Shown: positions 31,510 to 61,826 of the stretch, in pieces
Position numbering within the stretch: the stretch's first letter is position 1
Layout of the letters: every line of letters begins with the position of its first letter
Assembly: GCA_902789325.1 (NCBI GenBank)
Contig: CADANN010000001.1
Span: 38,024 to 102,023 of the forward strand
DNA: 64,000 nucleotides
Origin: an uncultured Spirochaetaceae bacterium
Lineage (GTDB): Bacteria > Spirochaetota > Spirochaetia > Treponematales > Treponemataceae
Direction: 5' to 3'
Notes under the pieces: model-generated
Told to the model about the DNA's origin: nothing
Seen by the model: only the letters and a program-made list of their open reading frames with translations
Databases searched by the model: none
Made by a program: the position numbers and the translations under genes

Positions 31510-33072
31510 TTAGTTGGCCTCGCTTAAAAGGAAGTTATCAATCTGGCGCGCACATTCACGGCCTTCTGCAATTGCCCACACAACCAGTGACTGACCGCGA
31601 TGCATATCACCAGCGGTAAATACCTTTGTAACATTTGTAGCATATCCGTTTGGACTTGCTAACTCTGGAGTTGCATCTCCTACAGAAGCAACAGTTCCAC
31701 GAGGACCAAGTTCTGTTCCAAATTCCTGAGCAGTATATTCTTCACAACCGGTGAAGCCAGCAGCAACGAGAAGCAAATCACAAGGCAATGTTTTTTCTGT
31801 TCCTTCGCGTTCTACAAGCTGACGTTTTCCATCAATCATTTTGAATTCAACTTCTACAGTGCGTACAGCAGTTATATGTCCATTTTCTTTTATTACTTCT
31901 TTTACAGTTGTTTCGTAAACTCTAGGGTCATGGCCAAATTTTGCAAGGCTTTCTTCTGCACCATAATCTACCTTGAGCACTTTAGGCCACTGTGGCCATG
32001 GATTATTAGCAGCACGCTCTACAGGTGGACAAGGCATCATTTCTATCTGTGTTACAGATTTACAACCCAAACGAATTGCAGAACCACAGCAGTCGTTTCC
32101 TGTATCACCACCACCTACAATTACAACATCTTTTCCTTCTACTTCAATTCCAAAATCCTGAACAAGCATCTGATCAATCTGCTTATTTGCAGGAGCAATA
32201 CCAATTTCTTCAAGAGCATTACTTGTTGCAATAACACTCTTTGTAACTGCTTTCAAAAAGTCTACAGCAAACATTACCCCTTTTGCATCAACTCCAGGAG
32301 CAGTAAGGGCACGCGCTTTTTTTGCACCGCAGCACAAAGCGATTGCATCAAAATCTTTCAGAATCTGAGAAGCAGCATAACTGCGACCTACATCAGCATT
32401 GAAAATAAATTCAACACCCTCTTCCTTCATAAGCTCAATACGGCGATCAACAATCTTTTTGTCCAGCTTCATATTTGGAATACCGTACATCAAAAGTCCG
32501 CCGGCCTTATCTTCGCGCTCAAAAACAGTAACGCTGTGTCCGCGGCGGTTGAGCCAATCAGCTGCTGCAAGACCAGCTGGCCCCGCACCAATTACAGCAA
32601 CTTTTTTACCACTTCGCTGAGCAGGAACTTCTGGCTTCATATAACCAGTTTCAAAAGCTTTTTCGATTATAAAGAGTTCATTATCGTGAACGGTTACAGC
32701 GCCATCCCCTACAACAGGACTTCCACAGTTACAAGCCTTTTCACAAAGAGCAGGACAAACACGACCAGTAAATTCAGGAAAAGAAGATGTCTTCAAAAGT
32801 CTCCAGGCAGCCATATCAAACTGTCCGTTATAAAGAGCATCGTTCCACTCAGGAATATAGTTATGAAGCGGACAACCCGTTACCATTCCAGCAAGTTTAA
32901 TTGCACTCTGGCACATTGGAACACCGCAGTTCATACAACGTGCAGCCTGTTCACGGCGAGCCTTTTCATCAAGCTTTGGATGAAACTCTTTAAAGTTACA
33001 TATTCGCTCAAGAGCCGGAACGTTTCCATTTTCAACTCTCTGATAATCCATGAATCCTGTTGGTTTTGCCAT
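31510..33072 (-). CDS. gltD: glutamate synthase (NADPH) small subunit
   Basis: Cys clusters for Fe-S, then GAGPAG and GGGDTG dinucleotide folds. Start trimmed to MAKPTGF because the ORF-track extension runs into the leader T-tract. Confidence 0.93.
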   Translation of the reverse strand: MAKPTGFMDYQRVENGNVPALERICNFKEFHPKLDEKARREQAARCMNCGVPMCQSAIKLAGMVTGCPLHNYIPEWNDALYNGQFDMAAWRLLKTSSFPEFTGRVCPALCEKACNCGSPVVGDGAVTVHDNELFIIEKAFETGYMKPEVPAQRSGKKVAVIGAGPAGLAAADWLNRRGHSVTVFEREDKAGGLLMYGIPNMKLDKKIVDRRIELMKEEGVEFIFNADVGRSYAASQILKDFDAIALCCGAKKARALTAPGVDAKGVMFAVDFLKAVTKSVIATSNALEEIGIAPANKQIDQMLVQDFGIEVEGKDVVIVGGGDTGNDCCGSAIRLGCKSVTQIEMMPCPPVERAANNPWPQWPKVLKVDYGAEESLAKFGHDPRVYETTVKEVIKENGHITAVRTVEVEFKMIDGKRQLVEREGTEKTLPCDLLLVAAGFTGCEEYTAQEFGTELGPRGTVASVGDATPELASPNGYATNVTKVFTAGDMHRGQSLVVWAIAEGRECARQIDNFLLSEAN

Positions 33073-33199
33073 TTTTTTCCTCGCAAAAAACAAAAAGGCG
33101 CCGTAAGAAGAATCCGAAATTTTCAGACTCTTTTTACGGCGCCTTTGCCTTTAAACTAAATTGTTTCTATATTATCGCAAAATGACATATTGTTGTCAA
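33073..33199 (-). promoter_or_regulatory. gltD-purF leader: sigma70 promoter + GGCAAAGG-box terminator hairpin
   Basis: On the minus strand: TTGACA (33199-194), 17-nt spacer, GATAAT (33176-171), box AAGGCAAAGG, hairpin arms at 33146-33134 and 33106-33094, then TTGTTTTTT. A GAGG RBS and the ATG at 33072 follow. Confidence 0.7.
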
Positions 33200-33237: not shown

Positions 33238-35646
33238 CTATTTAGTTTCTGGTGTGTGCCACTTCCAGTTTACTACCTCTGGTAAATCTTCACCGAGTTC
33301 TGAGATGTGCTGCTTGTGAGCAACGAGAGTATCATTCATCTTCTGAACGAGGTGGCTAGATTTGTTTCCAAGCTGTGGCAAGTACTGCAATGCAGCCTTT
33401 ACGAGGTCGAAGCGGTCAATCTTGTTCTGTACGCGCATGTCGAACGGAGTTGTGATTGTACCTTCTTCGTGGTATCCATAAACGTGGAGGTTGCGGTTTT
33501 CACGAAGATATGTGAGCTCGTGTACCAGCTTTGGATATCCATGGAATGCGAAAATGATTGGCTTGTCCTTTGTGAACAAAGCATTGTATTCGCTTTCGCT
33601 GAGTCCGTGTGGATGCTGATGATCGCTCTGGAGTTTCATCAAGTCTACAACGTTTACAAAGCGGATCTTGAGTTCTGGAAGATTATCGCGAAGGATTGTT
33701 GTAGCAGCAAGTGCTTCAAGAGTTGGTGTATCACCACAACAAGCCATTACGAGATCTGGTTCCTGACCATCATCGTTAGAAGCCCAGTCCCAGATACCAA
33801 TACCCTGAGTACAGTGTTTAACTGCCTGATCCATTGTAAGCCACTGGCAGCTTGGGTGCTTAGAAGCAACAATTACGTTTACGTAGTTCTTGCTCTTAAT
33901 ACAGTGGTCGAATGTAGAAAGAAGACAGTTTGTATCAGGCGGCAAGTACATACGTACAACGTCAGCCTTTTTGTTAGAAATATGATCGAGGAATCCTGGA
34001 TCCTGGTGTGTGAATCCGTTGTGGTCCTGCTGCCATACGTTTGATGTAAGGATGAGGTTCAAAGATGCGATTGGTGCACGCCACTTGAGCTGTGAGCAAA
34101 CCTTGAGCCATTTTGCATGCTGAGAAGCCATTGAGTCGATGATACGAATGAATGCTTCGTAGCTTGCGAAGAATCCGTGACGACCTGTAAGGAGGTAACC
34201 TTCGAGCCAACCTTCACACATATGCTCAGAAAGGTATGAGTCCATGATACGTCCGTTGTGAGCGAGCTTATCATCTGTTGGAAGGATTTCTGCGTTGAAG
34301 TCGCGGTTTGTAGCTTCGAATGCAGCATAAAGTCTGTTAGACATAGACTCATCTGGTCCGAAGATACGGAAGTTCTTGTTGTCTTCGTTGAGCTTAAGAA
34401 CATCGCGGATATAGTTTCCGAGCTCTTTCATATCCTGTGCTTTTACGCTACCAGGAGTTTTAACTTCGAGAGCATATTTTTTGAAGTCAGGTGTGCGGAG
34501 GTCCTTAAGAAGGTTACCACCGTTTGCATGTGGGTTAGCAGAAATTCTGTGTTCACCCTTTGGAGCGATAGCCTGGATTTCAGCCTTGAGGCGGTAGTTC
34601 TCATCAAAGAGTTCTTCCGGCTTGTAAGACTTGAGCCATGCTTCGAGTTCCTTCATGTGTTTTGCTTCATTTGGATCTGGCTTTGTGAGGTCGATAGGAA
34701 CCTGGTGTGCACGGAATGAGTTTTCAATTGGAAGGCCGTCGTCGTTGAACTTTGGACCTGTCCATCCCTTTGGAGTGCGGAGAACGATCATAGGCCAGAA
34801 TGGGCGCTCTGTTTTTCCGTTTACACGAGCATCGCGCTGAATCTTCTGAATCTTTTCAATACACTTATCAACAGCAGCAGCCATTGCGTGGTGTACTTCC
34901 ATGTGGTCTGTATCTGGAGTTGCTTCAACAAAGATTGGATCCCAACCACAACCGTGGAAGAAGCTCTTTACTTCGTCCTTAGAAATACGTGCAAATATAG
35001 TTGGGTTAGAAATCTTATATCCGTTGAGGTGGAGGATTGGAAGAACTGCACCGTCTGTTACAGGATTAAGGAATTTGTTTGAGTGCCATGCTGTAGCCAA
35101 TGGACCAGTTTCTGCTTCACCATCACCTACGATACAAGTTGTAATGAGGTTAGGATTATCAAATACAGAACCGAATGCGTGAGCGATAGAATAACCAAGC
35201 TCACCACCTTCGTTGATAGAACCTGGAGTTTCTGGAGCAACGTGGCTTGAGATTCCGCCTGGGAATGAGAACTGCTTGCAAAGACGGCTCATACCTTCTT
35301 CATCAAGACTTACGTTTGGATAAACCTCTGAATAGTAACCTTCAAGATAAGAGTTAGCTACGAAGAAGTTTCCTCCATGTCCTGGACCTGAAATAAGAAT
35401 CATGTCGAGATTGTATTTTGTGATAGCTCGGTTCAAGTGAGTATACACAAAGTTCTGGCCTGGAACTGTACCCCAGTGACCAACGATTTTTGTTTTTACC
35501 TGATCGCGTGTTAAAGGCTTTCTCAAAAGAGGATTCTCTTTCATGTAAAGCTGGGCAGCTGCAAGATAGTTAGTTGCACGCCAGTACTGATCAAGTCGGT
35601 TGAAGTATTCTTCTGAATCTTCAATGCGTTTTGCCTTTTTTGACAT
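33238..35646 (-). CDS. xfp: xylulose-5-P/fructose-6-P phosphoketolase
   Basis: 802 aa. Typical N-terminus ([14 protein letters not shown]...HWGTxPG) and a ThDP motif region GDGEAETG. Confidence 0.95.
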
Positions 35647-35919: not shown

Positions 35920-38900
35920 CTATGCAGTGCACTTACGGAATGCAGCAAGAACTGCATCTTCATGATTTGCAATTGTTTTTTCCTGCTCAACGATTTCCTT
36001 CATGATACGAAGGTAGTCATTAGGGATGATTTTCTTGAATTTTGTTTTCATATTATCCCAATCAGCAAGAATTGCTTTTGCACGCTCACTGCCAGTTTCT
36101 TTTGCATGCTGTTCGATGAGTGCGTAGAGATGATTTTCATCAGTTGTGCCACTAAGGGTTGTTGTCTCATCATCAAGAGCATACATTTTTACCAGTTCGT
36201 GATTCATGCGTTTATAAAGATCATGATTTTCATCAAGAACATAGGCTACACCACCGCTCATACCGGCACAGAGATTCTTTCCGGTTCCTCCAAGAATTAC
36301 AGCTGTACCACCAGTCATATATTCAAGACCATGATCACCACAACCTTCGGCTACAACAGTTGCACCAGAGTTTCGAACACAGAAACGTTCACCGGCTACA
36401 CCATTAATAAATGCAGTTCCGCTGGTTGCTCCAAACAATGCTACGTTACCTACGATTATATTTCCGTCAGCTTTACCTTCGAACTCTGCAGGCTTTTTGA
36501 TTACAAGCTTTCCGCCACTCAAACCTTTACCGAATGCGTCGTTTGCATCTCCAGTAAGGCGCAATGTAAGTCCCTTTGGAATAAAAGCACCAAAGCTCTG
36601 GCCTGCACCACCTTTGAAGTTTACGCAGTAAGTGTCATCAGAAAGTGTATTTCCGAATTTTTTCTGAATTTCAGAGCCGAGTATTGTACCAACAGTTCGG
36701 TCTGTAGACTGGATGTCGATTAAATCACCAGTTTTCTTATTTTCAAAATCCGGAACAAGTTTTGTAAGATCAATGCGTTTTTCAAGCTCAAAGTCAAAAA
36801 GTGAACGGTCAGCTTTCCAATCGCCGCCAGCTTCTGCATTAGCAAGAACACGGCTCATATCAACCAGCCCTGCTCTCTTGAAGCCCTGCTTATCCTTAAG
36901 CTTGAGCAAATCAGTTCTACCACAGAGCTCTTCTACAGTACGAACTCCAAGTTTTGCCATAATCTCACGCATTTCCTGAGCAATGAACTTCATAAAATTG
37001 ATTACGTATTCAGGCTTTCCAGGGAATTTTGCGCGAAGCTTTTCGTTCTGAGTTGCAACACCAAATGGACAGGTATCCAGCTGACATACACGCATCATAG
37101 AACAGCCCATAGCAATAAGAGGAGCAGTAGCAAAACCGAATTCTTCTGCACCAAGAAGAGCTGCAATTACGACATCACGACCACTCATAAGCTTACCATC
37201 AGTTTCAATTACAACACGACCACGAAGTCCATTCTGAATCAGAGTCTGGTGAGTTTCAGCAAGACCAAGCTCCCAAGGTAAACCAGCATGATGGATTGAA
37301 CTGATTGGAGCCGCACCTGTACCACCGTCGTGACCAGAAATCAAAATTACCTGAGCACCAGCTTTTGCAACACCAGCGGCAATTGTTCCAACGCCGGCTT
37401 CACTTACAAGCTTTACACTGATACGTGCTGCACGGTTTGCATTTTTCAAATCGTAAATCAGCTGAGCCAAATCTTCGATAGAATAGATATCATGATGAGG
37501 TGGAGGCGAAATCAAAGCAACACCAGGGGTTGCATATCTTGTTTTTGCAATCCAAGGATAAACCTTTTTACCAGGCAAATGTCCACCTTCACCAGGCTTA
37601 GCCCCCTGTGCCATCTTAATCTGGATTTCGCGGGCACTCAAAAGATATTCTTCTGTAACACCAAAACGTCCAGAAGCAACCTGTTTAATTGCAGAGTTAT
37701 ATTCTGTTCCAAGACGCTCCGGTTTTTCTCCACCTTCTCCACTGTTGCTTTTTCCGTGAATGGCATTCATTGCAGCGGCCATACATTTATGAGCCTCTTC
37801 ACTGATTGAACCATAACTCATGGCACCAGTCTTAAAGCGTTTTACAATCTCGTCTACACTTTCAACTTCATCAATTGAAATACCTTCACCGGCTTTTTCA
37901 AAATCAAAATCGAGCATTGCACGAAGAGTATGTGGATGAGAGTTATCGTCAACTAACGCAGTGTATTCCTTAAAGCGAGTGTAATCTCCATTGCGGGTTG
38001 CCTGCTGCAAAGCCACAATAGTCTCTGGATTATAAAGATGGCTTTCTGCCTGAGGGCCACGACGGAATTTATGCTTACCGAAAGAATCCAGATGCTGGTT
38101 TACAGTAAGGCCAGCAGGATCAAAGCCCTGATCGTGATGATAGCGAACGTCTTCTTCTATTTCTTTAAGACCTACCCCTCCAACACGGCTGACTGTATTT
38201 GTAAAATATTTTTCAACTACGTCACCGGCAATTCCAACTGCTTCAAAAATCTGAGCACTCTGGTAAGACTGAATTGTTGAGATACCCATTTTTGCAGCAA
38301 TCTTTACAATACCATTTATAATTGCCTTATTATAATCATCAATTGCTGTGTGATAATCTTTATCAAGAATTTTCTGATCAATAAGTTCTGCAATTGCTTC
38401 GTGTGCAAGATAAGGGTTGATTGCACGGGCACCATAACCAAGACACATTGCAGCCTGATGAACATCTCGAACTTCTGCAGTCTCAAGAATAATAGAAATT
38501 GCAGTACGCTTTTTTGTTCGGATTAAATACTGTTCAACAGCACTGGTTGCAAGGATAGCAGGAATTGCAGCGTGAGTTTCATCTACACCGCGGTCACTAA
38601 GAATGATGATGTTGTATCCATCGACATAAGCAGCATCGATTTGTGCAAAGAGTTTTTCAAGTGCAGTTTTCAACAGACTGTCACCCCGAACTTGTTTCGG
38701 GGTCTCATTTGTAGATGCTGAAACAAGTTCAGCATGACTATCTTTATTCAAATCAAATAAAATTGAAATTGTTTTTGTCTTAAGTCCCGGCTGATTCAAA
38801 GTACTGATTTTCATCAAATCTGTACCAGTCAAAATCGGATTATTAATTTCAAGAACACGACAGTTCTTTGCCTCCGGCTGCAAAAGGTTACCATCCTTTC

Positions 38901-40506
38901 CAACATAAACAGTAGTGTCAGTAACAACCTTCTCACGAAGACTATCAATAGGAGGGTTTGTAACCTGAGCAAAAAGCTGCTTGAAGTAAGAGAAAAGCGA
39001 CGGATGTTTTTCACTCATTACAGCAAGCGGAGTATCAACACCCATACTTGCAGTAGGTTCTACACCGTTACGAGCCATAGGCAGAATCATTTCATTTACA
39101 TCTTCATAATTCCAGCCGAAAGCACGGTACATGATATTTCTTTCATCCTGAGTAAATACAGGAATCTTTTTGTTTGGAATCTTCAGATCAGCAAGGTGAA
39201 TAAGATTCATATCAAGCCATTCACCATAAGGATAAAGTGAAGCATATTCTTTTTTACATTCTTCATCAGAAATGATTTTTTTCTGAACAGTATCTACAAG
39301 AAGGATTCTTCCCGGCTGCAAACGTGATTTAATTTTTATATTTTCTTCTGGAATATCAAGAACACCAACTTCACTGCTCAAAATAAGCATATTGTCTTTT
39401 GTGATGTAATAGCGGCTTGGACGAAGACCATTACGATCAAGAGTTGCACCAAGCAAATCACCATCACTAAACAGAATTGCAGCAGGACCATCCCAGCTTT
39501 CCATCATAGTTGCCCAGTAATGATAAAAATCTTTTTTATTCTGAGGCATATTATCATCGTGTTTCCAAGGTTCAGGAATACACATCATTACAGCAAGAGG
39601 AAGAGGAACGCCGTTCATAACCAGGAACTCGAGAGTATTATCGAGCATTGCAGAGTCAGAACCAGTAGTATCTACTGCAGGAAGGATTTTCTGCATCTGA
39701 GTTTTATCAAGTTTGGTAGAACTAACAGTTTCTTCTCGAGCAAGCATACGGTCAACGTTTCCACGGATTGTATTGATTTCTCCGTTATGCGCAATAAAGC
39801 GGTTTGGATGAGCACGCTGCCAGCTAGGCTGAGTATTTGTAGAAAAGCGGGAATGAACAAGAGCAAGAGCCGATTCATAATCAGCAGACTGTAAATCGCT
39901 GTAAAAAGTGCGGAGCTCATGAACAAGGAACATACCTTTGTAAACAATTGTACGGCTGCTCAAAGAACAAACATATGTTTTATGTTCGCTGTCCTGTTTT
40001 TCAAACTCGCGTCTGGCAATATAAAGTCTGCGGTCGAAATCAATTCCCTTCTCACATTCAGAAGGACGCGCAATAAAGGCCTGCCAGATATTAGGCATAC
40101 AGTCACGCGCCTTTTTACCAAGCACTTCAGCATTTACAGGAACTTTACGCCAGCCAAGGAACTTCAATCCTTCTGCAGAACAGCATTTTTCAAAACGAGC
40201 TTTTTCAGAAGCACAAACAGTATCGTCTCCAGGAAAGAAAAACTGACCAATACCGTAATCGCGTTCACCAAGCGAACCAATCAAATCCTGCACAGCCTGC
40301 TTATAAAACTTGTGACAAATCTGAACAAGAATACCTACACCATCTCCAGTTTCACCGCTGGCATCTTTACCTGCACGGTGTTCAAGTTTTTCAACGATAC
40401 TCAAGGCATTATCAACAATTTTGTGCGTTTTAGAACCGTCAATATTTACTACCGCACCAATACCGCAAGCATCATGTTCAAATGCTGGTTCATACAATGT
40501 TTTCAT
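35920..40506 (-). CDS. gltB: glutamate synthase large subunit
   Basis: 1528 aa. N-terminal Ntn Cys (FEHDACGIG), FMN/3Fe-4S central domains and a C-terminal GXGXG beta-helix domain. Confidence 0.97.
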   Translation of the reverse strand: MKTLYEPAFEHDACGIGAVVNIDGSKTHKIVDNALSIVEKLEHRAGKDASGETGDGVGILVQICHKFYKQAVQDLIGSLGERDYGIGQFFFPGDDTVCASEKARFEKCCSAEGLKFLGWRKVPVNAEVLGKKARDCMPNIWQAFIARPSECEKGIDFDRRLYIARREFEKQDSEHKTYVCSLSSRTIVYKGMFLVHELRTFYSDLQSADYESALALVHSRFSTNTQPSWQRAHPNRFIAHNGEINTIRGNVDRMLAREETVSSTKLDKTQMQKILPAVDTTGSDSAMLDNTLEFLVMNGVPLPLAVMMCIPEPWKHDDNMPQNKKDFYHYWATMMESWDGPAAILFSDGDLLGATLDRNGLRPSRYYITKDNMLILSSEVGVLDIPEENIKIKSRLQPGRILLVDTVQKKIISDEECKKEYASLYPYGEWLDMNLIHLADLKIPNKKIPVFTQDERNIMYRAFGWNYEDVNEMILPMARNGVEPTASMGVDTPLAVMSEKHPSLFSYFKQLFAQVTNPPIDSLREKVVTDTTVYVGKDGNLLQPEAKNCRVLEINNPILTGTDLMKISTLNQPGLKTKTISILFDLNKDSHAELVSASTNETPKQVRGDSLLKTALEKLFAQIDAAYVDGYNIIILSDRGVDETHAAIPAILATSAVEQYLIRTKKRTAISIILETAEVRDVHQAAMCLGYGARAINPYLAHEAIAELIDQKILDKDYHTAIDDYNKAIINGIVKIAAKMGISTIQSYQSAQIFEAVGIAGDVVEKYFTNTVSRVGGVGLKEIEEDVRYHHDQGFDPAGLTVNQHLDSFGKHKFRRGPQAESHLYNPETIVALQQATRNGDYTRFKEYTALVDDNSHPHTLRAMLDFDFEKAGEGISIDEVESVDEIVKRFKTGAMSYGSISEEAHKCMAAAMNAIHGKSNSGEGGEKPERLGTEYNSAIKQVASGRFGVTEEYLLSAREIQIKMAQGAKPGEGGHLPGKKVYPWIAKTRYATPGVALISPPPHHDIYSIEDLAQLIYDLKNANRAARISVKLVSEAGVGTIAAGVAKAGAQVILISGHDGGTGAAPISSIHHAGLPWELGLAETHQTLIQNGLRGRVVIETDGKLMSGRDVVIAALLGAEEFGFATAPLIAMGCSMMRVCQLDTCPFGVATQNEKLRAKFPGKPEYVINFMKFIAQEMREIMAKLGVRTVEELCGRTDLLKLKDKQGFKRAGLVDMSRVLANAEAGGDWKADRSLFDFELEKRIDLTKLVPDFENKKTGDLIDIQSTDRTVGTILGSEIQKKFGNTLSDDTYCVNFKGGAGQSFGAFIPKGLTLRLTGDANDAFGKGLSGGKLVIKKPAEFEGKADGNIIVGNVALFGATSGTAFINGVAGERFCVRNSGATVVAEGCGDHGLEYMTGGTAVILGGTGKNLCAGMSGGVAYVLDENHDLYKRMNHELVKMYALDDETTTLSGTTDENHLYALIEQHAKETGSERAKAILADWDNMKTKFKKIIPNDYLRIMKEIVEQEKTIANHEDAVLAAFRKCTA
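38680..38738. repeat. 59-nt double-hairpin repeat element inside gltB (copy A, complete)
   Basis: GTCA-CCCCGAA-CTTGT-TTCGGGG-TCTCATTTGTAG-ATGCTGAA-ACAAG-TTCAGCAT-GAC. It is translated in frame as SHAELVSASTNETPKQVRGD. Confidence 0.8.
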
Positions 40507-41356: not shown

Positions 41357-42910
41357 TTATCCATTCAATATTTTTGCTGCCTCGTTTTCCCCATTTGATG
41401 TTGAATAAAAATAAGGTGTTTCAGCATCAAATTCGCCGGCACAGGTATCAACCATTTTGAAGGATATCGGAGGATACAACATTCCGCTGTTACTTTTTTC
41501 AGCCTTTGTAATATTTTCCAGCTTGCACAGGAACCACTCGTCAATTTTTGTAATTTCGTGAATCTGTTCAACTGAATAAAGTCCGCGTTTAAGGGCCTGA
41601 TAAATTGCAAATATTCTCTGATCGGTGCACTGTCCTACCCGTTCGCGTATTTTCTCATCACCTTCTTTTTCAAAGGCAGGAAGATTCAAATCTTTTACAC
41701 CAACTTCAAGTCCTCGGGCAGCCTTAAGAATTGCTTCTTCAAAGTTCTGGCCAATTGCCATAACTTCACCAGTTGCCTTCATCTGTGTACCAAGCTTACG
41801 TGCAGCATAAACAAATTTATCGAACGGGAACTTTGGCATTTTTACAACTACATAGTCGAGAACAGGTTCAAAGCAGGCTTTTGTCTTCTTTGTTACAAAG
41901 TTTGGAATTTCATCCAGAGTAAAGCCAACTGCTATGAGGGCTGCAACCTTTGCGATTGGATAGCCGGTTGCTTTTGAAGCGAGCGCTGAAGAACGCGAAA
42001 CACGAGGGTTTACCTCAATTACCGCATATTCAAAGCTGTCTGGATTAAGTGCAAACTGACAGTTACAGCCACCTTCAATTTCGAGGGCGCTGATGATATT
42101 GAGTGCGGCACTTCGCAGCATCTGATATTCTTTATCTGCAAGAGTCACAGTTGGTGCAATTACGATTGAGTCACCAGTATGAACACCAACAGGATCAAAG
42201 TTTTCCATAGAACAGACAGTAATTACGTTAGCATTGCTGTCCCGCATTACTTCAAACTCAACTTCTTTCCATCCGCTGATACATTTTTCTACAAGTATCT
42301 GATGAATTGGCGAACGATGAAGTCCGTTATGAGCAATTTCGTCCAGTTCGCGGTCGTTATTTACAATACCACCACCTGTTCCACCAAGGGTAAAGGCCGG
42401 ACGGATAATTGCAGGAAAGCCGATTTCGTTATGAACAAAATCAGCAGCATCTTCGTAAGTAGTTACAACTTTTGAAGGAATACAAGGCTCTCCTATTGCT
42501 TCCATTGTATCTTTGAACATCTGGCGGTCTTCTGCCTTGTCGATTGTTTCAGGGCGTGCACCAAGCAGCTGAACATTATGGCTCGCAAGAAAGCCGGATT
42601 TTGCAAGCTCCATACTGAGGGTCAATCCCGTCTGACCGCCAAGTGTTGAAAGCAGGCTGTCTGGTTTTTCTTTTTCGATGATTCTTTCAAGAGTTCGCAG
42701 AGTAAGCGGTTCCATGTAAATCTCATCTGCCATTTCGTGGTCAGTCATTAAAGTTGCCGGATTTGAGTTTACAAGACAAACTTCAAGTCCAAGAGATTTC
42801 AGAGCCTTACATGCCTGATTTCCGGCATAGTCAAATTCCGCTGCCTGTCCAATTACAATCGGACCGGAACCAATAATCATTACTTTGTGAATATTTTTAT
42901 TGAGAGGCAC
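41357..42910 (-). CDS. carB: carbamoyl-phosphate synthase large subunit, N-terminal half only
   Basis: 517 aa. It begins [25 protein letters not shown] and ends at ...[20 protein letters not shown], the junction between the two homologous CarB halves. A stop follows, and then a convergent GNAT gene. Confidence 0.9.
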
Positions 42911-42911
42911 T

Positions 42912-44042
42912 TTATTTTTCCTCCATCATTTTTAAGAATCTGTCGAATAAAAAGTTTGTATCGTGCGGGCCACCGCAAGCTTCCGGATGGAACTGTACGC
43001 TGAAGGCTGGAATATCTGTATAATCTACACCTTCAACTGTTCCGTCGTTTACATTAAAGAAACTCATTTTTGCAAAGGACGGCAAAGAGGTGTTTTCTAC
43101 TGCATAACCATGATTCTGACTTGTAATGTAAACACGATTTGTTGCTGTATCTTTTACCGGATGATTTCCACCGCGGTGTCCGTATTTTAATTTGCTGGTT
43201 TTTGCACCACGTGCAAGAGCGAGCATCTGATGTCCAAGACAGATTCCAAAGATTGGAATTTTTCCGTACTCGCACAATTTTCTAATTTCTTCTATAACAC
43301 CAACATTGTCTGCAGGGTCTCCAGGGCCGTTACTGAGCATAACTCCATCGGGATTTTGTTTGATTACTTGTTCTGCAGTGGAATTATATGGAACGACTGT
43401 AACACGACAGCCACGTTTTTCGAGCTCGCGCTGAATATTTAATTTTGCGCCAAAGTCATAAAGGATGACGTGGGGGGCGTTGCGGGGGCTCTCCCCTGCA
43501 GAAGGGGGTGTGGCGAAGACCGCTTGCGGGCTGAGCCCAGGGGGAAGGCTTTCCCCCTCACTATGCTGGACACTTTCAACAGCTTTTTCTATTTTATAAT
43601 TTTTGATTTCTTCAAGCAGTTTGTCGGAAACTTCCTGGCATTCTCCGCTAACAATCATGCCGTTCATTACGCCAGATTCGCGAAGTCGTTTTGTAAGGGC
43701 GCGGGTATCAATTCCACAGATTCCAACAACCCCCTGCTCTTTCAAAAAATCATTCAACGAACCAGCACAGCGGAAATTAGAAGGCGCCTCACACAGCTCA
43801 CGAACTATATAACCGCGCACCCAGGATTTTTTACTTTCAAAATCCTCTGGCATTACACCATAGTTTCCAATTAATGGAAAAGTCTGTGTAACTATCTGCC
43901 CGTAATAACTTGGATCTGTAAGGGTTTCAATGTAGCCGGTCATTCCTGTAGTAAAAACTGTTTCACCGATTGTAGTGCCTACCGCTCCAATTGAAGTTCC
44001 TTCAAAAACCGTCCCGTCTGCGAGAATTAACCAAGCCTTCAT
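42912..44042 (-). CDS. carA: carbamoyl-phosphate synthase small (glutaminase) subunit
   Basis: 376 aa with the triad motif GICLGHQ...HPE. Contains a GC-rich linker segment (see findings). Confidence 0.95.
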
Positions 44043-54779: not shown

Positions 54780-56516
54780 ATGGACTACACAAAACATCCG
54801 CTTAAGATTTTCTTCTCGTATTACAAACCTCATGTGGGCCTCTTCATTGCCGATATGATCTGCGCATTTTTTATGGCCGCTATAGATGTTGCATTTCCAA
54901 TGTTCACCCGTTATGCATTAAACACACTGATTCCCAATCATCAGCTTCGAACATTTTTAATTCTTGTAGTAATTCTTTTTGCAGGATTTTGTCTTCATAA
55001 AGCCTGCAACTGGTTTGTAGCCTACTGGGGACACGTTTTCGGAAACCGAGTTGAGCAGGATATGAGGCGAGATGTTTTTGATCACCTTGAAAAGTTACCC
55101 TTCAGTTTTTACGACACAAACCGAACCGGTAAAATCATGTCGCGTGCAACCACAGATCTTTTTGAAATCACAGAACTTGCACACCATGGTCCAGAAGATT
55201 TTTCAATCGCAATGCTGAATCTCATTGGTTCCTTTGTACTTCTTCTTACAATCAGATGGGAACTTGCGATAATTGTTTTTATCATGCTGCCTCTGATTTT
55301 CTTCATAGTATATACTTCGCGAAAAAATCTTACTCAGGCTTCTACAAAAGTAAAAGAAACAACTGCCGAAGTAAACGCAGGTCTTGAATCCAGCATTTCG
55401 GGAATCCGCGTAACAAAAGGCTTTTGCAACGAAGATTTTGAACGAGAACGCTTCGCCGTTTACAACAAACAGTACAGTGCCGCAAAACAGGGCCGCTTCC
55501 GCTATATGGCAAGTTTTTTCTCAAACATCGAATTCTGTAATAATCTTCTTTCACTTCTTACTATTGCAGTTGGTGGATATTTTATCATGCAGGGAAAAAT
55601 GACACTCCCAGATTTAGTTGCCGCTAACTTATTTGTTGCAAGTTTTGTAGGACCAATTAAACGTTTAAACGGATTTGTAGAACAGTTTGCAACCGGTATG
55701 GCAGGCTTCAACAGATTTATTGAACTTATGAACACAGCGACTGAACCAGCCGATGCTCCGAATGCAGTAGAAATTCTTTCTGCCCGTGGAAACATCAGCT
55801 TTAAGAATGTTGATTTTTCTTATACTCCAGACTTCCCTATTTTGCAGAATGTAAATCTCGAAATTCATTCCGGAGAAAAATTTGCGCTCGTTGGTGCAAG
55901 TGGAGGTGGAAAAACAACAATCTGTAATCTTATTCCACGCTTTTATGAAATTACCGGTGGCTCAATCAGCCTCGATGGAATTGATATTCATCAGATAAAA
56001 AAACAATCCCTCCGTACTCAGATTGGCATTGTACAGCAGGATGTTTTCCTTTTTGCCGGAACTATCCGCGAAAATATTGCATACGGAAAACCGAACGCTA
56101 CACAGGAAGAAATTGAGCTTGCAGCTCGTCGTGCCGAAATCCACGAAGACATCATGAAAATGCCTAACGGCTACGACTCCGTGGTGGGCGAGCGCGGTAT
56201 TAAGCTCAGTGGCGGACAAAAACAGCGCGTCTCAATCGCCCGCTGCTTCCTCAAAAATCCCCCAATCTTAATACTCGACGAAGCGACATCCGCCTTAGAC
56301 ACCGCGACCGAGATCAAGATACAGCACGCATTCGATGAACTTTCCCGAGGTCGCACTACTCTTGTAATTGCACACCGTCTTTCCACCATCAAAAATGCCG
56401 ACAAAATTGCCGTGGTAAATGACCACGGCATAGTAGAACTCGGCACACACGATGAGCTTATGGCAAAACACGGTGAATACTACAAGCTACAGAGCGCTCA
56501 GGTTACCGTGCAGTAA
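54780..56516 (+). CDS. ABC exporter, fused permease/ATPase (MsbA/multidrug-like)
   Basis: Walker A GASGGGKTT, signature LSGGQKQR and Walker B ILILDEATS. Confidence 0.92.
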   Translation: MDYTKHPLKIFFSYYKPHVGLFIADMICAFFMAAIDVAFPMFTRYALNTLIPNHQLRTFLILVVILFAGFCLHKACNWFVAYWGHVFGNRVEQDMRRDVFDHLEKLPFSFYDTNRTGKIMSRATTDLFEITELAHHGPEDFSIAMLNLIGSFVLLLTIRWELAIIVFIMLPLIFFIVYTSRKNLTQASTKVKETTAEVNAGLESSISGIRVTKGFCNEDFERERFAVYNKQYSAAKQGRFRYMASFFSNIEFCNNLLSLLTIAVGGYFIMQGKMTLPDLVAANLFVASFVGPIKRLNGFVEQFATGMAGFNRFIELMNTATEPADAPNAVEILSARGNISFKNVDFSYTPDFPILQNVNLEIHSGEKFALVGASGGGKTTICNLIPRFYEITGGSISLDGIDIHQIKKQSLRTQIGIVQQDVFLFAGTIRENIAYGKPNATQEEIELAARRAEIHEDIMKMPNGYDSVVGERGIKLSGGQKQRVSIARCFLKNPPILILDEATSALDTATEIKIQHAFDELSRGRTTLVIAHRLSTIKNADKIAVVNDHGIVELGTHDELMAKHGEYYKLQSAQVTVQ

Positions 56517-56527
56517 GCAGTAAAACT

Positions 56528-56572
56528 GTCATTCCGAACTTGTTTCGGAATCTAAATCAAGTTCAGCATGAC
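56528..56572. repeat. double-hairpin repeat element, copy C (second hairpin half-deleted)
   Basis: GTC-ATTCCGAA-CTTGT-TTCGGAAT-CTAAATC-AAGTTCAGCATGAC. It overlaps the last 3 codons and the stop of the minus-strand gene. Confidence 0.75.
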
Positions 56573-57876
56573 TCAACCACACGGATTGCAAAAGTGTCAT
56601 CGGCAATGCAAACTTCGCCGCGTGCAACAATTTTGCCTGAGCGGATAATCTGTGCAAACTCTCCGGCCCTCTGTTTCAAAATAACATAAGAGCCCTGATG
56701 CAGGCCTGCAACTTCTTCTTTTGAAAGGTAAGCGCTTCCAAGCTGAATCGAAATATAATCTTTTTCATCGTAGATGATTTCATTCAACTGAGGATTTTCA
56801 GCAATTCTCATTCCAAAAAGTTCATCAATTGCAACAGTTTTACCAGTGTGAATTACACGGTTCTCATAAACAAGATTTAGTCCTTCATTTTCCTTTTTAT
56901 CCAGAATTAAAATCAAGCCCGGTTCAAGAGAAACATTTTCCGGACGGAATCTTCCAAGTTCAATAAAAACATTGTCCGGCTGCTGATGACTTTTTATATT
57001 TGAAAGATTCTGAAATCTTATTTTTCCACCAACAGTTCCTGCATTTCCGCCGTCACCAAAAAAGCCGCCCATAACCATTTCTTCAAGAAGAGTGTCACTA
57101 AACTGAAGATTTATCCAGCCTTCCTGACCGGCAACATTTCCCTTAAGAGCAAGCAGCAGCATCATGCAATTGTCTTCCTGCCGAGTCGTATTGGAATTTC
57201 CTGCAGCCACAGCTTTTCCCAGCTCAAACTTTTCGTCAGAAACCTTCCCGTCTGTGCGCCGACAGATTTCTTCCTTAAGCATTCCTGTTACAGTTTTTAC
57301 AAAATAATTCTTAAAAACATCAATATCAAATTCAGTAATGGCCTCGTATTTCGTGCAATCCTGTTTGAGCAGTGCCTTTGCAATCAGAGCATCTGCTTCA
57401 ATAGTAAAACCTGCATTCGAATAATCAAAATCATAGAAAAAACATTTCTGCGGAATCGAATGTAAAAACTCGGAATTAATCATCTGATCCACAAGTGACA
57501 CAGAAAAATCACAGCGCTCATTCATCATGGCAGTAAATTCATGATTTATAAGACGGCAGATATCCTCGCCCAGAATCCAAAGCTCCCGCTGCATATAACG
57601 CGGATAACGGTCTGGCTGGCGGAAGTTATACTCCTTAATTTTCTTTCCGCTCACATCCTGACTCACAGGCAATTCGCCGTTCATAATCGACTCAACTTCA
57701 ACTCCAAATACTTCGGCAAGTTTAGGAAGTACTGTCACATCCGGGCAACCTTCACCACGCTCCCACTTTGAAACAGCTTTGTCGGTTACATTACATTGTT
57801 CTGCAAGTTCCTTTTGAGTAAGTCCCTTTCGATTTCGTAATTCATAAATCAAAAATCCAGTTTTTTCTGCATTCAT
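56563..57876 (-). CDS. XRE-type HTH fused to FliM-like middle domain and FliN/SpoA-like C-terminal domain
   Basis: - HTH: LRNRKGLTQKELAEQCNVTDKAVSKWERGE.
- FliM-like segment: IKEYNFRQPDRYPRYMQRELWILGEDICRLINHEFTAMM...
- FliN-like end: GSYVILKQRAGEFAQIIRSGKIVARGEVCIADDTFAIRVVE.
The start follows an AAGGAG RBS. Confidence 0.75.
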   Translation of the reverse strand: MNAEKTGFLIYELRNRKGLTQKELAEQCNVTDKAVSKWERGEGCPDVTVLPKLAEVFGVEVESIMNGELPVSQDVSGKKIKEYNFRQPDRYPRYMQRELWILGEDICRLINHEFTAMMNERCDFSVSLVDQMINSEFLHSIPQKCFFYDFDYSNAGFTIEADALIAKALLKQDCTKYEAITEFDIDVFKNYFVKTVTGMLKEEICRRTDGKVSDEKFELGKAVAAGNSNTTRQEDNCMMLLLALKGNVAGQEGWINLQFSDTLLEEMVMGGFFGDGGNAGTVGGKIRFQNLSNIKSHQQPDNVFIELGRFRPENVSLEPGLILILDKKENEGLNLVYENRVIHTGKTVAIDELFGMRIAENPQLNEIIYDEKDYISIQLGSAYLSKEEVAGLHQGSYVILKQRAGEFAQIIRSGKIVARGEVCIADDTFAIRVVESC

Positions 57877-57962
57877 AATAATTCTCCTTAGCAGTTTCCC
57901 GCTTACATTCAAAATCGTAACACGGAAGCTGCAGTCTGTAACCCGACGTGTAGTTTAACAGA

Positions 57963-58456: not shown

Positions 58457-60247
58457 ATGTGTGGTTTTGTAGGATGCTTTGATTTGAACTCAGGTAGCGC
58501 GCCTATTGCAGAAGGCTTGAAAGAAGAACTTCGTGCGCAGGTTCTGGAGATGTCTAAGAAAATTCGTCACCGTGGTCCAGACTGGAGCGGTGTTTATACC
58601 GGTAATAATGCTATTTTAAGCCATGAACGTCTTTCAATCGTAGACCCACTTTCAGGAAAACAGCCTTTGGTCAGCGATGATGAAAAAATCATTCTTGCCG
58701 CAAACGGTGAAATCTACAATCACAAGGAAATCCGAGCAAAGTTTGATGGTTCATATAAGTTCAGAACTGGAAGTGACTGCGAAGTTATTATTCCTCTTTA
58801 TAAAAAATACCGCAAATCTGGCGATTTCACAAAGATGATTGAAGAGCTTTCGGGTATCTTCGCATTCGCACTTTATGACAGCGAACACGACACATATCTG
58901 ATTGCCCGCGACGAAATCGGTGTTATTCCACTATATCAGGGCTGGGACAAAGCAGGCCGCTATTATGTTGCAAGCGAACTCAAAGCTCTCGAAGGCGACT
59001 GCCAGACAATTGAAGAATTCCCTAATGGAAGTTATTTATACAGCGGCCGTCATGCTGAACTTGTTTCAGCATCAACTGATGAGACCCCGAAACCAATCCG
59101 CTGGTATCACCGCAACTGGGAATCATATGAAAGCGTAAAATCAGCCCCAAAAGCAACCGACGAAAAAGGCGAAGTAATCAACCCAAGCGTAATCGAAAAA
59201 GTACGTAACGGACTCGAAACTGCAGTAAAAGCCCAGTTGATGTCAGACGTTCCTTACGGCGTACTTCTTTCCGGCGGTCTCGACTCATCAATCATCGCAG
59301 CAATCACACAAAAATACAGCAAAAAACGTATTGAAACAGACAGCAAGGAAGCAGCCTGGTGGCCACAGCTCCACTCATTCGCAGTTGGACTTGAAGGTTC
59401 TCCAGACCTTATCGCTGCTCAAAAGGCCGCAGACTATATCGGAACCGTTCACCATGAAGTACACTTTACAATTCAGGAAGCACTCGATGCTCTCCCTGAT
59501 GTAATTTACCACATCGAAACTTACGACATCACAACAGTTCGTGCCTCTACCCCTATGTATCTGCTTGCGCGTGTAATCAAATCTATGGGAATCAAGATGG
59601 TTCTTTCGGGCGAAGGAAGTGACGAGCTCTTTGGTGGTTACCTTTACTTCCACAAGGCTCCAAATGCACAGGAGTTCCATGAAGAACTTGTACGTAAAAT
59701 GAGTAAACTTCATCTTTACGACTGTCTCCGTGCAAACAAATCTCTTATGGCATGGGGTGTTGAAGGCCGCGTTCCATTCCTTGATAAAGACTTTATCGAC
59801 ATCGCAATGGGCCTCAACCCAAGTGATAAAATGAACATCAAATTACCAGATGGTAAACAGAGAATGGAAAAATGGATTCTCCGTAAAGCCTTTGAAGATC
59901 TTCTTCCAGAAAGCATTGCATGGCGCCAGAAGGAACAGTTCTCAGATGGTGTAGGCTATAACTGGATTGATACCCTCAAAAAGATGACAGAAGAAAAGGT
60001 AAGCGACGCAGAATTTGCACGCCGCGAAAACCGCTTCCCTGTAAATCCTCCAAAAACAAAAGAGGAATATTACTACCGCGAAATCTACAGCCGCCTCTTC
60101 CCAAGCGACAGTGCAGCACGTTGTGTTCCACACGAAGCCGGAGTTGCATGTTCAACAGCAAAAGCCCTCGAATGGGATGCAGCATGGAAGACTATGGATG
60201 AACCGAGCGGACGCGCAATTGCAGGAGTTCACGATAATGCCTACTAA
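58457..60247 (+). CDS. asnB: asparagine synthase (glutamine-hydrolysing)
   Basis: N-terminal MCGFVG (Ntn Cys) and PP-loop SDVPYGVLLSGGLDSS. 596 aa. Confidence 0.96.
   Translation: MCGFVGCFDLNSGSAPIAEGLKEELRAQVLEMSKKIRHRGPDWSGVYTGNNAILSHERLSIVDPLSGKQPLVSDDEKIILAANGEIYNHKEIRAKFDGSYKFRTGSDCEVIIPLYKKYRKSGDFTKMIEELSGIFAFALYDSEHDTYLIARDEIGVIPLYQGWDKAGRYYVASELKALEGDCQTIEEFPNGSYLYSGRHAELVSASTDETPKPIRWYHRNWESYESVKSAPKATDEKGEVINPSVIEKVRNGLETAVKAQLMSDVPYGVLLSGGLDSSIIAAITQKYSKKRIETDSKEAAWWPQLHSFAVGLEGSPDLIAAQKAADYIGTVHHEVHFTIQEALDALPDVIYHIETYDITTVRASTPMYLLARVIKSMGIKMVLSGEGSDELFGGYLYFHKAPNAQEFHEELVRKMSKLHLYDCLRANKSLMAWGVEGRVPFLDKDFIDIAMGLNPSDKMNIKLPDGKQRMEKWILRKAFEDLLPESIAWRQKEQFSDGVGYNWIDTLKKMTEEKVSDAEFARRENRFPVNPPKTKEEYYYREIYSRLFPSDSAARCVPHEAGVACSTAKALEWDAAWKTMDEPSGRAIAGVHDNAY
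59049..59093. repeat. double-hairpin repeat element inside asnB (copy B, 3'-truncated)
   Basis: GTC-ATGCTGAA-CTTGT-TTCAGCAT-CAACTGATGAG-ACCCCGAA-AC. It is translated in frame as RHAELVSASTDETPK. Confidence 0.8.
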
Positions 60248-61826
60248 TGATTCTGCAAAATCAAAAGGAACAATCGTAGTTCTTGGTTCAGGCCCAATCC
60301 GAATCGGTCAGGGAATTGAGTTCGACTACGCGAGCGTTCAGTGTGTACGCGCCCTCAAAAAACTTGGGTATGAAGTTGCAATCATCAACAACAACCCGGA
60401 AACTGTAAGTACCGACTTTGATACTGCAGACCGTCTTTATTTTGAACCACTCACTCCACCAGATGTTATGAACGTAATCAACGATGAAAAACCTCTTGGT
60501 GTAGTAGTTGCATTTGGCGGTGGAACAGCAATTAAACTTGCAAAATATCTGGACAGTCAGGGAGTACGTATTCTCGGAACTTCTGCAGATGCAATCGACC
60601 TTGCCGAAGACCGTGAACGTTTTGAAGAACTCTGCGACCGCCTCAACATTAAGCGCCCTCGCGGACTTACAGTGTTTACAGAAGTAGAAGCCCTCGAATC
60701 TGCTGCAAAAATCACCTACCCTGTTCTCATGCGACCAAGCTACGTACTTGGCGGTCAGAACATGATTGTTGCCCGCAACAATGCAGATGTAAAAGAATAC
60801 ATGAAAATCATTCTGCGTCAGGGAATTGAAAATCCGGTTCTTATCGACAAATATATGGAAGGAACTGAGCTCGAAGTAGACTGTATCTGCGACGGCGAAA
60901 ATGTTTTGATTCCTGGAATTATGGAACACGTTGAGCGCACTGGTATTCACTCAGGTGACTCAATTGCAGTTTATCCAGGTCAGTTCACTCCAGAAATTGA
61001 AGAAAAAATCGTTCGTCAGTCTACAGACCTTGCACTTGCACTTGGAACAAAAGGTCTTGTAAATATTCAGTATCTTATTTACGACAATGATCTTTATATT
61101 ATCGAAGCAAATCCACGTTCAAGCCGTACCGTTCCTTACCTTAGTAAGGTTTCTGGTGTACCAATGATTGACCTTGCAACCCGCGCCATGCTCGGAGAAA
61201 AAGTTCGTGAACTTGGTTATGGAACAGGTCTTTACCGTAAACCAGATTATTGTGCCGTAAAAGTTCCAGTATTCAGTTTTGAAAAACTGATGGATGTGGA
61301 TACACATCTTGGCCCGGAAATGAAATCAACTGGTGAAGTTCTTGGCATTGCCCCTACCCGCGAAGAAGCACTCTTTAAAGGAATGGTTGCTGCAGGATGG
61401 AAGATGATTAAAGAAGGCGGCATTCTGTTCTCAGTTCGTGAATCTGACCTTCCGGAACTTCCAGCCCTTGCAAAAAAGTTTTATGATCTTGGCTTTACTC
61501 TTTATGCAACAAGCGGAAATGCCTCAACAATTGAACGCAGTGGTATGCCCGTAACCCACGTTGCAAAAGTTCACGAAAATTACAATGACAATGTAATGAC
61601 TCTTCTGGAAAGCGGAAAAGTTGTTTACGTAGTTTCTACATCTGCAAAAGGACGCGATCCTGTAGCCGAAAGCGTAAAGCTTCGCCGTCTTGCTGTAGAA
61701 CGAGATATTGATTGTCTTACAGCCTTGGACACTGCTAACGCACTCGCAGACTGTCTTGCAAGTCCATACACATTAGATAACGTAAGCGTAGTTGATATCA
61801 ATCACGATTTAAGAATTCATAACTAA
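60237..61826 (+). CDS. carB: carbamoyl-phosphate synthase large subunit, C-terminal half (second ATP-grasp + MGS-like allosteric domain)
   Basis: It starts MPTNDSAKSKGTIVVLGSGPIRIGQGIEFDYASVQ, matching the second CarB repeat, and ends with an MGS-like domain (ILFSVRESD...LYATSGNA). The ATG at 60237 overlaps the asnB stop by 11 nt. The upstream part of the ORF-track ORF overlaps asnB and is discounted. Confidence 0.9.
   Translation: MPTNDSAKSKGTIVVLGSGPIRIGQGIEFDYASVQCVRALKKLGYEVAIINNNPETVSTDFDTADRLYFEPLTPPDVMNVINDEKPLGVVVAFGGGTAIKLAKYLDSQGVRILGTSADAIDLAEDRERFEELCDRLNIKRPRGLTVFTEVEALESAAKITYPVLMRPSYVLGGQNMIVARNNADVKEYMKIILRQGIENPVLIDKYMEGTELEVDCICDGENVLIPGIMEHVERTGIHSGDSIAVYPGQFTPEIEEKIVRQSTDLALALGTKGLVNIQYLIYDNDLYIIEANPRSSRTVPYLSKVSGVPMIDLATRAMLGEKVRELGYGTGLYRKPDYCAVKVPVFSFEKLMDVDTHLGPEMKSTGEVLGIAPTREEALFKGMVAAGWKMIKEGGILFSVRESDLPELPALAKKFYDLGFTLYATSGNASTIERSGMPVTHVAKVHENYNDNVMTLLESGKVVYVVSTSAKGRDPVAESVKLRRLAVERDIDCLTALDTANALADCLASPYTLDNVSVVDINHDLRIHN

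Follow-up and report, generated by a model that had tools for sequence, protein, structure and literature searches.

The best-known cases of selfish palindromes translated within core enzymes come from Rickettsia, where the Rickettsia palindromic elements (RPEs) proliferated and then eroded. A second related system is found in Pseudomonas and E. coli, whose GTAG-tagged repetitive extragenic palindromic (REP) sequences are thought to be moved by HUH/Y1 transposases, the REP-associated tyrosine transposases (RAYTs); the doublets of these sequences, REPINs, are specific to a species and evolve jointly with a RAYT that is inherited vertically. Here we describe a palindromic insert in gltB, the gene for the glutamate synthase large subunit, within a 64,000-nucleotide stretch of DNA from an uncultured Spirochaetaceae bacterium (assembly GCA_902789325.1, contig CADANN010000001.1, positions 38,024 to 102,023), which is referred to as the window. 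The insert extends a known phenomenon to a lineage (Treponema) and a host gene that are new for it, and does not represent a novel type of element. We put at roughly 85% the probability that a non-autonomous REP dimer of the CGTC-2 family, abundant in Treponema, landed in a permissive loop of gltB and is carried there as a passenger.

The closest described relatives are the CGTC-tagged REPs, for which the main text and supplementary table of Di Nocera, De Gregorio, and Rocco 2013 (BMC Genomics 14:522; PMC3733652) give a CGTC or TGTC tag, an 8-9-bp stem starting with A-T, a loop of 4-5 nt, and a short tail. The first two stem pairs are usually A-T and T-A and the 3-nt tail has the consensus CCA. 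Family CGTC-2, with examples in Sphingomonadales and in Sulfurovum, combines an 8-bp stem with a 5-nt loop; head-to-head dimers predominate, and among these heterodimers are dominant. According to the same source, CGTC REPs number from tens to thousands per genome, lie chiefly in intergenic DNA near the 3' ends of convergent or co-directional genes, and have no dedicated transposase in the published view. Intragenic dimers encoding 20-30 amino acids have already been reported there from several phyla, and the supplementary table contains a CGTC-2 unit inside SUN_0512 of Sulfurovum sp. NBC37-1 that is translated as RHSELVSGS. RPE-6 and Neisseria dRS3 are assigned to CGTC-1 and RPE-4 to CGTC-4, and Treponema is not named in the main text. 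Our literature search found no paper containing the hairpin sequence of the window or its peptides, and no paper on such insertions in Treponema.

The host gene gltB occupies positions 35920-40506 on the minus strand as an open reading frame (ORF) for a protein of 1528 aa, which matches B. subtilis GltA (7mfm) over its full length with 1583 bits. Full-length metagenome proteins are 99% identical to the window GltB, and GltB of T. bryantii is 89% identical. The inserted segment (38680-38739, minus strand) comprises 60 nt or 20 codons (S590-D609), forms a head-to-head heterodimer of CGTC-2-type REP hairpins, and encodes the peptide SHAELVSASTNETPKQVRGD in the context ...NKD-SHAELVSASTNETPKQVRGD-SLLK. 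The plus strand of 38680-38738 is GTCACCCCGAACTTGTTTCGGGGT-CTCATTTGTAG-ATGCTGAAACAAGTTCAGCATGAC, exactly as quoted in an earlier note on this DNA, whose placement of the element within the 1528-aa ORF and whose peptide reading are borne out by the translation. That note had described a 59-nt in-frame element; the element is in frame, but 59 is no multiple of 3 and the coding insert measures 60 nt. The element consists of two inverted 24-nt units with 11 nt between them, each made up of GTC, an 8-bp stem, the loop CTTGT (ACAAG on the opposite strand), and the return stem. Hairpin 1 (38715-38738, minus strand) has the sequence GTC-ATGCTGAA-CTTGT-TTCAGCAT with the tag aGTC and encodes (S)HAELVSAS; its sequence type is the most frequent in the family, with 50/164 hairpins of public genomes. 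The spacer (38704-38714, CTCATTTGTAG on the plus strand) encodes part of TNE. Hairpin 2 is inverted (38680-38703, plus strand) and has the sequence GTC-ACCCCGAA-CTTGT-TTCGGGGT with the tag tGTC, its coding strand giving (T)PKQVRGD. Both hairpins match the half-unit pattern GTCAYNCYGAACTTGTTTCRGNRT exactly, and other Treponema dimers are similarly short at 58-61 nt in total. Folding of the element as single-stranded DNA predicts two hairpins (-15.7 kcal/mol, z -4.7), and folding as mRNA predicts that both arms pair to give one long hairpin (-31.2 kcal/mol, z -6.1). In an AlphaFold model of a central-domain fragment the insert (fragment residues 130-149) is positioned between a strand (117-125) and a helix (143-168), with predicted local distance difference test values of 48-58 across the insert compared with 82-91 in the flanks. 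The modeled position is consistent with a flexible loop; the earlier note had expected a surface loop. The tryptic peptide DSHAELVSASTNETPK is the predicted marker of the translated insert.

Comparison with orthologous sequences indicates that the gltB peptide is a genuine insertion. All three types of solved glutamate synthase (GOGAT) have a gap at the insert site, and the gap in B. subtilis GltA spans 21 residues, its first and last positions each lying one residue beyond those of the peptide. A stretch of 19-22 residues is missing here from every one of the 120 partial GltB homologues (51-74% identity). These came from a 308-aa fragment query that returned partial proteins of up to 536 aa, and the resulting view that no relative has the insert was overturned by a full-length query, which returned 120 Treponema proteins (P0241-P0360) with 82-99% identity and many carriers among them. 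The insert is intact in P0241-P0247 (95-99% identical to the window GltB), P0252 (92%), and P0284 and P0285 (both 89%), and slightly different in P0250, P0253, P0263, and P0267. It is nested or duplicated in P0258, half deleted in P0248 (95%), reduced to a scar (GACGGTGAC) in P0249 (93%), and absent in P0251 (92%). Alignment of filled, eroded, and empty alleles at the DNA level resolves a 60-nt insert with a one-base junction ambiguity and no target duplication. Alignment with orthologues thus agrees with the earlier expectation of an insertion of ~20 aa, the peptide being absent from the solved GOGATs, the 120 homologues, and the gltB of a Treponema metagenome-assembled genome (MAG; L064, 73% amino acid identity). 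The element itself is not lineage-specific, as identical hairpins are found in many phyla. The same L064 gene, empty at the site of the window insert, has a single CGTC-2 hairpin (L064 5126-5149, CHPELVSGS) elsewhere, near window GltB residue 1225.

On the basis of its sequence the window hairpin fits the CGTC-tagged REP superfamily and family CGTC-2, because it agrees with the description in PMC3733652, as far as that goes, in its tag, in the lengths of stem and loop, and in the head-to-head arrangement of its dimers. The stems ATGCTGAA/TTCAGCAT and ATTCCGAA/TTCGGAAT fit the rule for the first stem pairs exactly, and in the stem ACCCCGAA/TTCGGGGT the second pair is C-G, as in 25/170 family members among the matches listed by the genome scan described below. 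Back-translation of the Sulfurovum peptide RHSELVSGS gives the GTCATnCTGAACTTGTTTCAGnAT hairpin in the same frame as in the window copies (RHAELVSAS and SHAELVSAS). Like published CGTC-2 units, the hairpins have an unpaired (C/T)GTC tag, an 8-bp stem starting with A, a 5-nt loop, and a short tail, and their dimers are mostly heterodimers, with occasional in-frame units or dimers. On T. saccharophilum pTS1 they are almost all intergenic, and a crude motif scan of element-bearing loci, made with no positive control, gave no sign of an associated transposase. In contrast to published CGTC-2, the window tail is CTA or CTC rather than CCA, which is the tail of Sphingomonadales copies of the same hairpin; one window arm is AGTC-tagged, one has the C-G second pair, and the dimer is very short (59 nt).

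The likeness to Rickettsia RPEs suggested by the earlier note proves closer than it had assumed, since RPE-4 and RPE-6 are placed in the same superfamily in PMC3733652. The RPEs (Ogata et al. 2000) are likewise selfish palindromes inserted in frame at permissive sites of housekeeping enzymes and absent from orthologues, with several repeat families per genome. The differences, for which we rely on literature descriptions only, are that the window element is of the CGTC-2 type (8-bp stem, 5-nt loop), whereas RPE-6 belongs to CGTC-1 with a 4-nt loop and RPE-4 to CGTC-4 with a 9-bp stem, and that the classic RPE-1 of ~150 bp is unrelated. The host in the present case is a free-living gut or rumen spirochaete, in contrast to the intracellular Rickettsia with its reduced genome. 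With the REPIN-RAYT system the window element has in common two inverted hairpins as the presumed mobile unit, lack of autonomy, lack of target duplication, and many copies. It differs in having a (C/T/A)GTC tag in all copies instead of GTAG, in that no RAYT is known for it and none was found in the window or in ~2 Mb of related loci, and in that one hairpin sequence is common to many phyla. The dRS3/NIME repeats of Neisseria resemble it in the layout of the superfamily (GTCATTCC...GGAAT hairpin frame) and in occurring in many, chiefly intergenic, copies, but dRS3 is of the 4-nt loop class with a different loop sequence, occurs in clustered arrays, and is known as an integration target and not as an in-frame coding insertion.

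The window contains two further loci with the element, as the earlier note had stated in placing copies in asnB and in an intergenic region. The half-unit pattern has four exact matches at three loci of the 64-kb window and none in 100 shuffles. Both additional copies are damaged, however, and the one described as intergenic overlaps the last two codons and the stop codon of a neighboring ORF. This second copy (56528-56572, plus strand) is an internally deleted dimer in which an intact hairpin (56528-56551, GTCATTCCGAACTTGTTTCGGAAT) is accompanied by 15 nt from the outer side of the inverted partner (CAAGTTCAGCATGAC). This copy is located between two convergent genes, one for an ABC transporter that ends at 56516 and one (56563-57912, minus strand) for a protein with helix-turn-helix (HTH) and FliN-C domains. 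The last two codons and TGA stop of the HTH and FliN-C gene (S-C-stop) come from the repeat copy (window 56563-56572), and its 3' end is therefore repeat-derived; the Pfam match of this protein ends at profile position 70/73. The third copy (59049-59093, plus strand) is inside asnB (58457-60247, plus strand). Its first hairpin (59049-59072, tag cGTC) is complete; after a spacer of 11 nt comes a second hairpin that has lost its outer half, the inner 10 nt (ACCCCGAAAC) being joined to host codons. The copy as a whole reads as RHAELVSASTDETPK. The gltB and asnB copies are 88% complementary across 52 nt. The asnB insertion site corresponds to a gap in E. coli AsnB and is empty in Treponema AsnB proteins with 91 and 89% identity (P0122 and P0124), filled by a full dimer in P0123 and P0134, and occupied by a different palindrome in P0121; no target duplication was found at the asnB junction. 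The 5-nt loop CTTGT is present in all window copies, the tails are CTA, CTC, CTA, and CAA, and the tags are cGTC in the asnB copy, tGTC in gltB hairpin 2 and the intergenic copy, and aGTC in gltB hairpin 1. The stem bases vary among the copies yet remain complementary; this covariation, which had been pointed out from the letters alone, extends to the family members listed below. Outside the three loci no CGTC-type hairpins with other loops were found in the window, and an Rfam E-value scan of 38400-39000 gave matches at chance level only.

When 185,579 species genomes were scanned for the half-unit pattern, at least 120 loci matched, and the family statistics given here were taken from the matches listed. 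These include Sphingomonadales, many Bacteroidota, eight Treponema or Treponemataceae records, Melainabacteria/Gastranaerophilales, Ignavibacteria, Elusimicrobia, Nitrospirota, groups of the candidate phyla radiation, and one contig binned as Nanoarchaeota, with a GC content of the loci between 31 and 72%. The variable stem bases are perfectly complementary in 155/170 hairpins from 120 loci. At least six stem types occur (GCT/AGC, CCT/AGG, CCC/GGG, TCC/GGA, TCT/AGA, and GCC/GGC), and three of the eight stem pairs covary, with a score that 0/500 shuffles reached. Of the 170 hairpins, 151 carry C (88) or T (63) immediately 5' of GTC, and the others carry A (10) or G (9). The two bases 3' of the stem are CT in 102/170 and CC in 53/170. 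An inverted partner is located within 170 nt of 92/170 hairpins and 78/170 are unpartnered; 61 of the 68 dimers are heterodimers, and their spacers of 10-97 nt have unrelated sequences. A search of the same 68 dimers for target-site duplications gave flanking direct repeats of 0 nt in 60 and 1 nt in 8, which is below chance. In Ignavibacterium and Melioribacteraceae MAGs (L040 1490-1677 and L112 147-870) the dimers form tandem arrays of five to nine hairpins with a spacing of ~82 or ~145 nt; clusters are reported to be rare for CGTC REPs. In IMG/VR the hairpin pattern is present in at least 120 predicted viral contigs (L130-L249), with perfect stems in 144/152 cases and a contig GC content of 28-72%. 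These matches could stem from prophages or flanking host DNA, or the contigs could be a vehicle by which the hairpin spreads. A blastn search of the INPHARED phage genomes gave no match, and the PLSDB plasmid collection yielded just two matches, T. saccharophilum pTS1 and a Novosphingobium megaplasmid.

Three of the six reading frames of the most frequent hairpin are open (VMLNLFQH, HAELVSAS, and MLKQVQHD) and three are closed by TGA, and convincing intragenic copies use open frames only. The HAELVSAS-type frame is read in gltB and asnB of the window, in the gltB of L064, in an AsnB-like protein of 934 aa (L085), and in an HsdM methylase (L076), the KQVQxD-type frame in L055 and L014, and the VMLNLFQH...KQVRDD frame in a membrane glycosyltransferase (L103). 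The copies in L085, L076, L103, L055, and L014 are in-frame copies in unrelated proteins from other phyla, L085 also belonging to the asparagine-synthase family. Long open frames hold ~23/174 hairpins, which is an upper bound because several of these hairpins lie upstream of the likely true start.

These observations can be combined into a proposed history of the gltB insert. One copy would have entered gltB in an ancestor of the Treponema bryantii-related clade, at what is modeled as the junction of a strand and a helix in the central domain. The hairpins were probably recognized as single-stranded DNA and cut and pasted by a trans-acting enzyme without target duplication, by analogy with RAYT and IS200-type HUH enzymes. 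The insert probably survived because its length of 60 nt preserves the reading frame and because it is read in a frame free of stop codons (HAELVSAS ... PKQVRGD), so that it would be translated as a predicted 20-residue extra loop. In sister lineages it is now eroding through internal deletions, and the copies in asnB and at five other GltB loops in related Treponema have met the same fate. The gltB copy is most likely a tolerated passenger with no function of its own. Several points weigh against this history. The copy count covers the 64-kb window and not the whole genome of the organism. No mobilizing, RAYT-type gene was found in the window, and a crude HUH...Y..NP motif scan, made with no positive control, of 6096 ORFs (2574 + 3522) in element-bearing loci totalling ~2 Mb, 120 IMG/VR contigs among them, found nothing; the published view of PMC3733652 likewise has CGTC REPs without a dedicated transposase. 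The perfect stems could result from templated repair within a hairpin and not from selection for mobility. Class-II glutamine amidotransferases host 2/3 of the window copies as well as those in the L064 gltB and the AsnB-like L085, a recurrence that could hint at more than neutrality. The gltB allele pattern, considered with no tree, leaves a single old insertion followed by losses inseparable from repeated insertions. A broader proposal, which we consider tentative and rather doubtful, is that the CGTC-2 hairpin is one sequence-constrained mobile element that is spreading now or has recently spread across more than 10 phyla, moved by a widespread and unrecognized enzyme other than a RAYT.

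The insert would have a different meaning if the hairpins were host-selected functional elements, acting as mRNA stabilizers, processing sites, or DNA sites of the gyrase or IHF type, with the gltB copy modulating the expression or activity of GltB. The intergenic copy lies between convergent genes, at most 12 nt from one stop codon and overlapping the other, a placement that is read as a sign of RNA-level function in the relevant part of PMC3733652. High stability is predicted for the mRNA hairpin (-31.2 kcal/mol), the sequence of the hairpins is conserved across loci with 31-72% GC, and nitrogen-assimilation amidotransferases recur as hosts (gltB and asnB of the window, L064, and L085). Yet the gltB copy decays piecemeal in close relatives (P0248 and P0249), is absent in P0251, or is replaced in its loop by unrelated repeats, and the other two copies in the window have each lost too much sequence for one of their hairpins to form. 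The insert loop is predicted with low confidence, and no U-tract follows the hairpins. A role as RNA stabilizer or modulator of GltB is disfavored because of the piecemeal decay and the truncation of both other window copies, and we regard it as unlikely.

Two further explanations concern the nature of the segment itself. Its termini are inverted repeats (GTCAysyGAAC ... GTTCrsrTGAC), extending 1-2 nt past GTCA in ~60% of the listed dimers, as might be the case for a classical miniature inverted-repeat transposable element, a deletion derivative of an insertion sequence on whose terminal inverted repeats a DDE transposase acts and which leaves a target-site duplication. The absence of such duplications from all 68 listed dimers and from the gltB and asnB sites largely refutes this explanation. 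Moreover, each supposed terminal repeat is a complete hairpin that is also found singly (the 78/170 listed hairpins with no partner within 170 nt, and the single unit in the L064 gltB), the spacers are unrelated and range from 10 to 97 nt, and the ~2 Mb of flanking DNA showed no parent insertion sequence. A transposable element of this class is thus very improbable. Even less credible is homology at the protein level, in which a conserved motif or a segment exchanged between GltB and AsnB, and not a DNA repeat, would account for the similarity. Both proteins have an N-terminal class-II amidotransferase domain, and the frame in which the element is read is common to the two (HAELVSAS...ETPK), but the two sites are not homologous, one being at residue 590 in the central domain of GltB and the other at residue 197 of AsnB. 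The 88% identity over 52 nt is at the DNA level, the same DNA is found in non-coding gaps and in unrelated proteins (HsdM and glycosyltransferase), and orthologues exist without the segment. A shared amidotransferase motif was rejected on these grounds, namely the non-homologous sites, the non-coding copies, and the empty orthologous sites.

A REP dimer carried as a passenger in a permissive loop can be viewed against the wider variation of GltB in Treponema, which together with the lineage itself is what the present case adds to the known phenomenon. The 121 GltB sequences compared have lengths of 1502-1648 aa, with ~7 insertion or deletion hot spots near query positions 92, 171-175, 587-611, 1226, 1254, 1258-62, and 1452. 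Peptides derived from CGTC-2 are present at six of these hot spots in 25/121 sequences. Other repeat-derived peptides at the hot spots are VVECSRSECIETT, VVSTGSTT/VVEPVETT, SNPCD, LPLAR...TPRNAP, and tandem SGKQLAV, so that the sites are filled by at least five families of such peptides. A second palindrome family, GGTGGTT...AACCACC, reads as VVECSRSECIETT or as VVSTGSTT/VVEPVETT and is the source of at least two of the hot-spot peptides. It is present at the same permissive loops as CGTC-2 in the asnB of a 92%-identical Treponema (L123 ~900-960) and in a gltB (L128 ~767-830); the window has no copy of it. On T. saccharophilum pTS1 there are 17 CGTC-2-type hairpins in 50 kb, nearly all of them intergenic and about one per intergenic gap.

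The window thus places the phenomenon in free-living gut or rumen spirochaetes and ties the element by sequence to a published REP superfamily. The intact, nested, eroded, scar, and empty alleles at one GltB loop and one AsnB loop form a natural set usable to date insertions and to study the movement of CGTC REPs. For annotation, peptides such as HAELVSAS, MLKQVQHD, and VMLNLFQH, where they appear in predicted proteins, mark the repeat and should not be taken for conserved motifs. The points most worth pursuing are this rich set of GltB and AsnB alleles and the occurrence of a near-identical hairpin across phyla and in viral contigs with no known mobilizing enzyme. If the spread across phyla is true, the Treponema bryantii clade would provide a natural test bed, with ~7 permissive GltB loops colonized repeatedly by at least five repeat families, and with filled, nested, eroded, and empty alleles at one and the same site.

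The surroundings of gltB in the window also differ from those in related Treponema. A phosphoketolase (XFP) gene at 33238-35646 separates gltB from a gltD-like gene (31510-33093), which directly follows gltB in the related loci L064, L126, and L127. The large subunit of carbamoyl-phosphate synthase is apparently split into two genes ~17 kb apart on opposite strands (41357-44042 and 60111-61826), the N-terminal half adjoining carA and the C-terminal half containing the MGS domain, and this split accounts for two inverted repeats of the window (I1 and I3).

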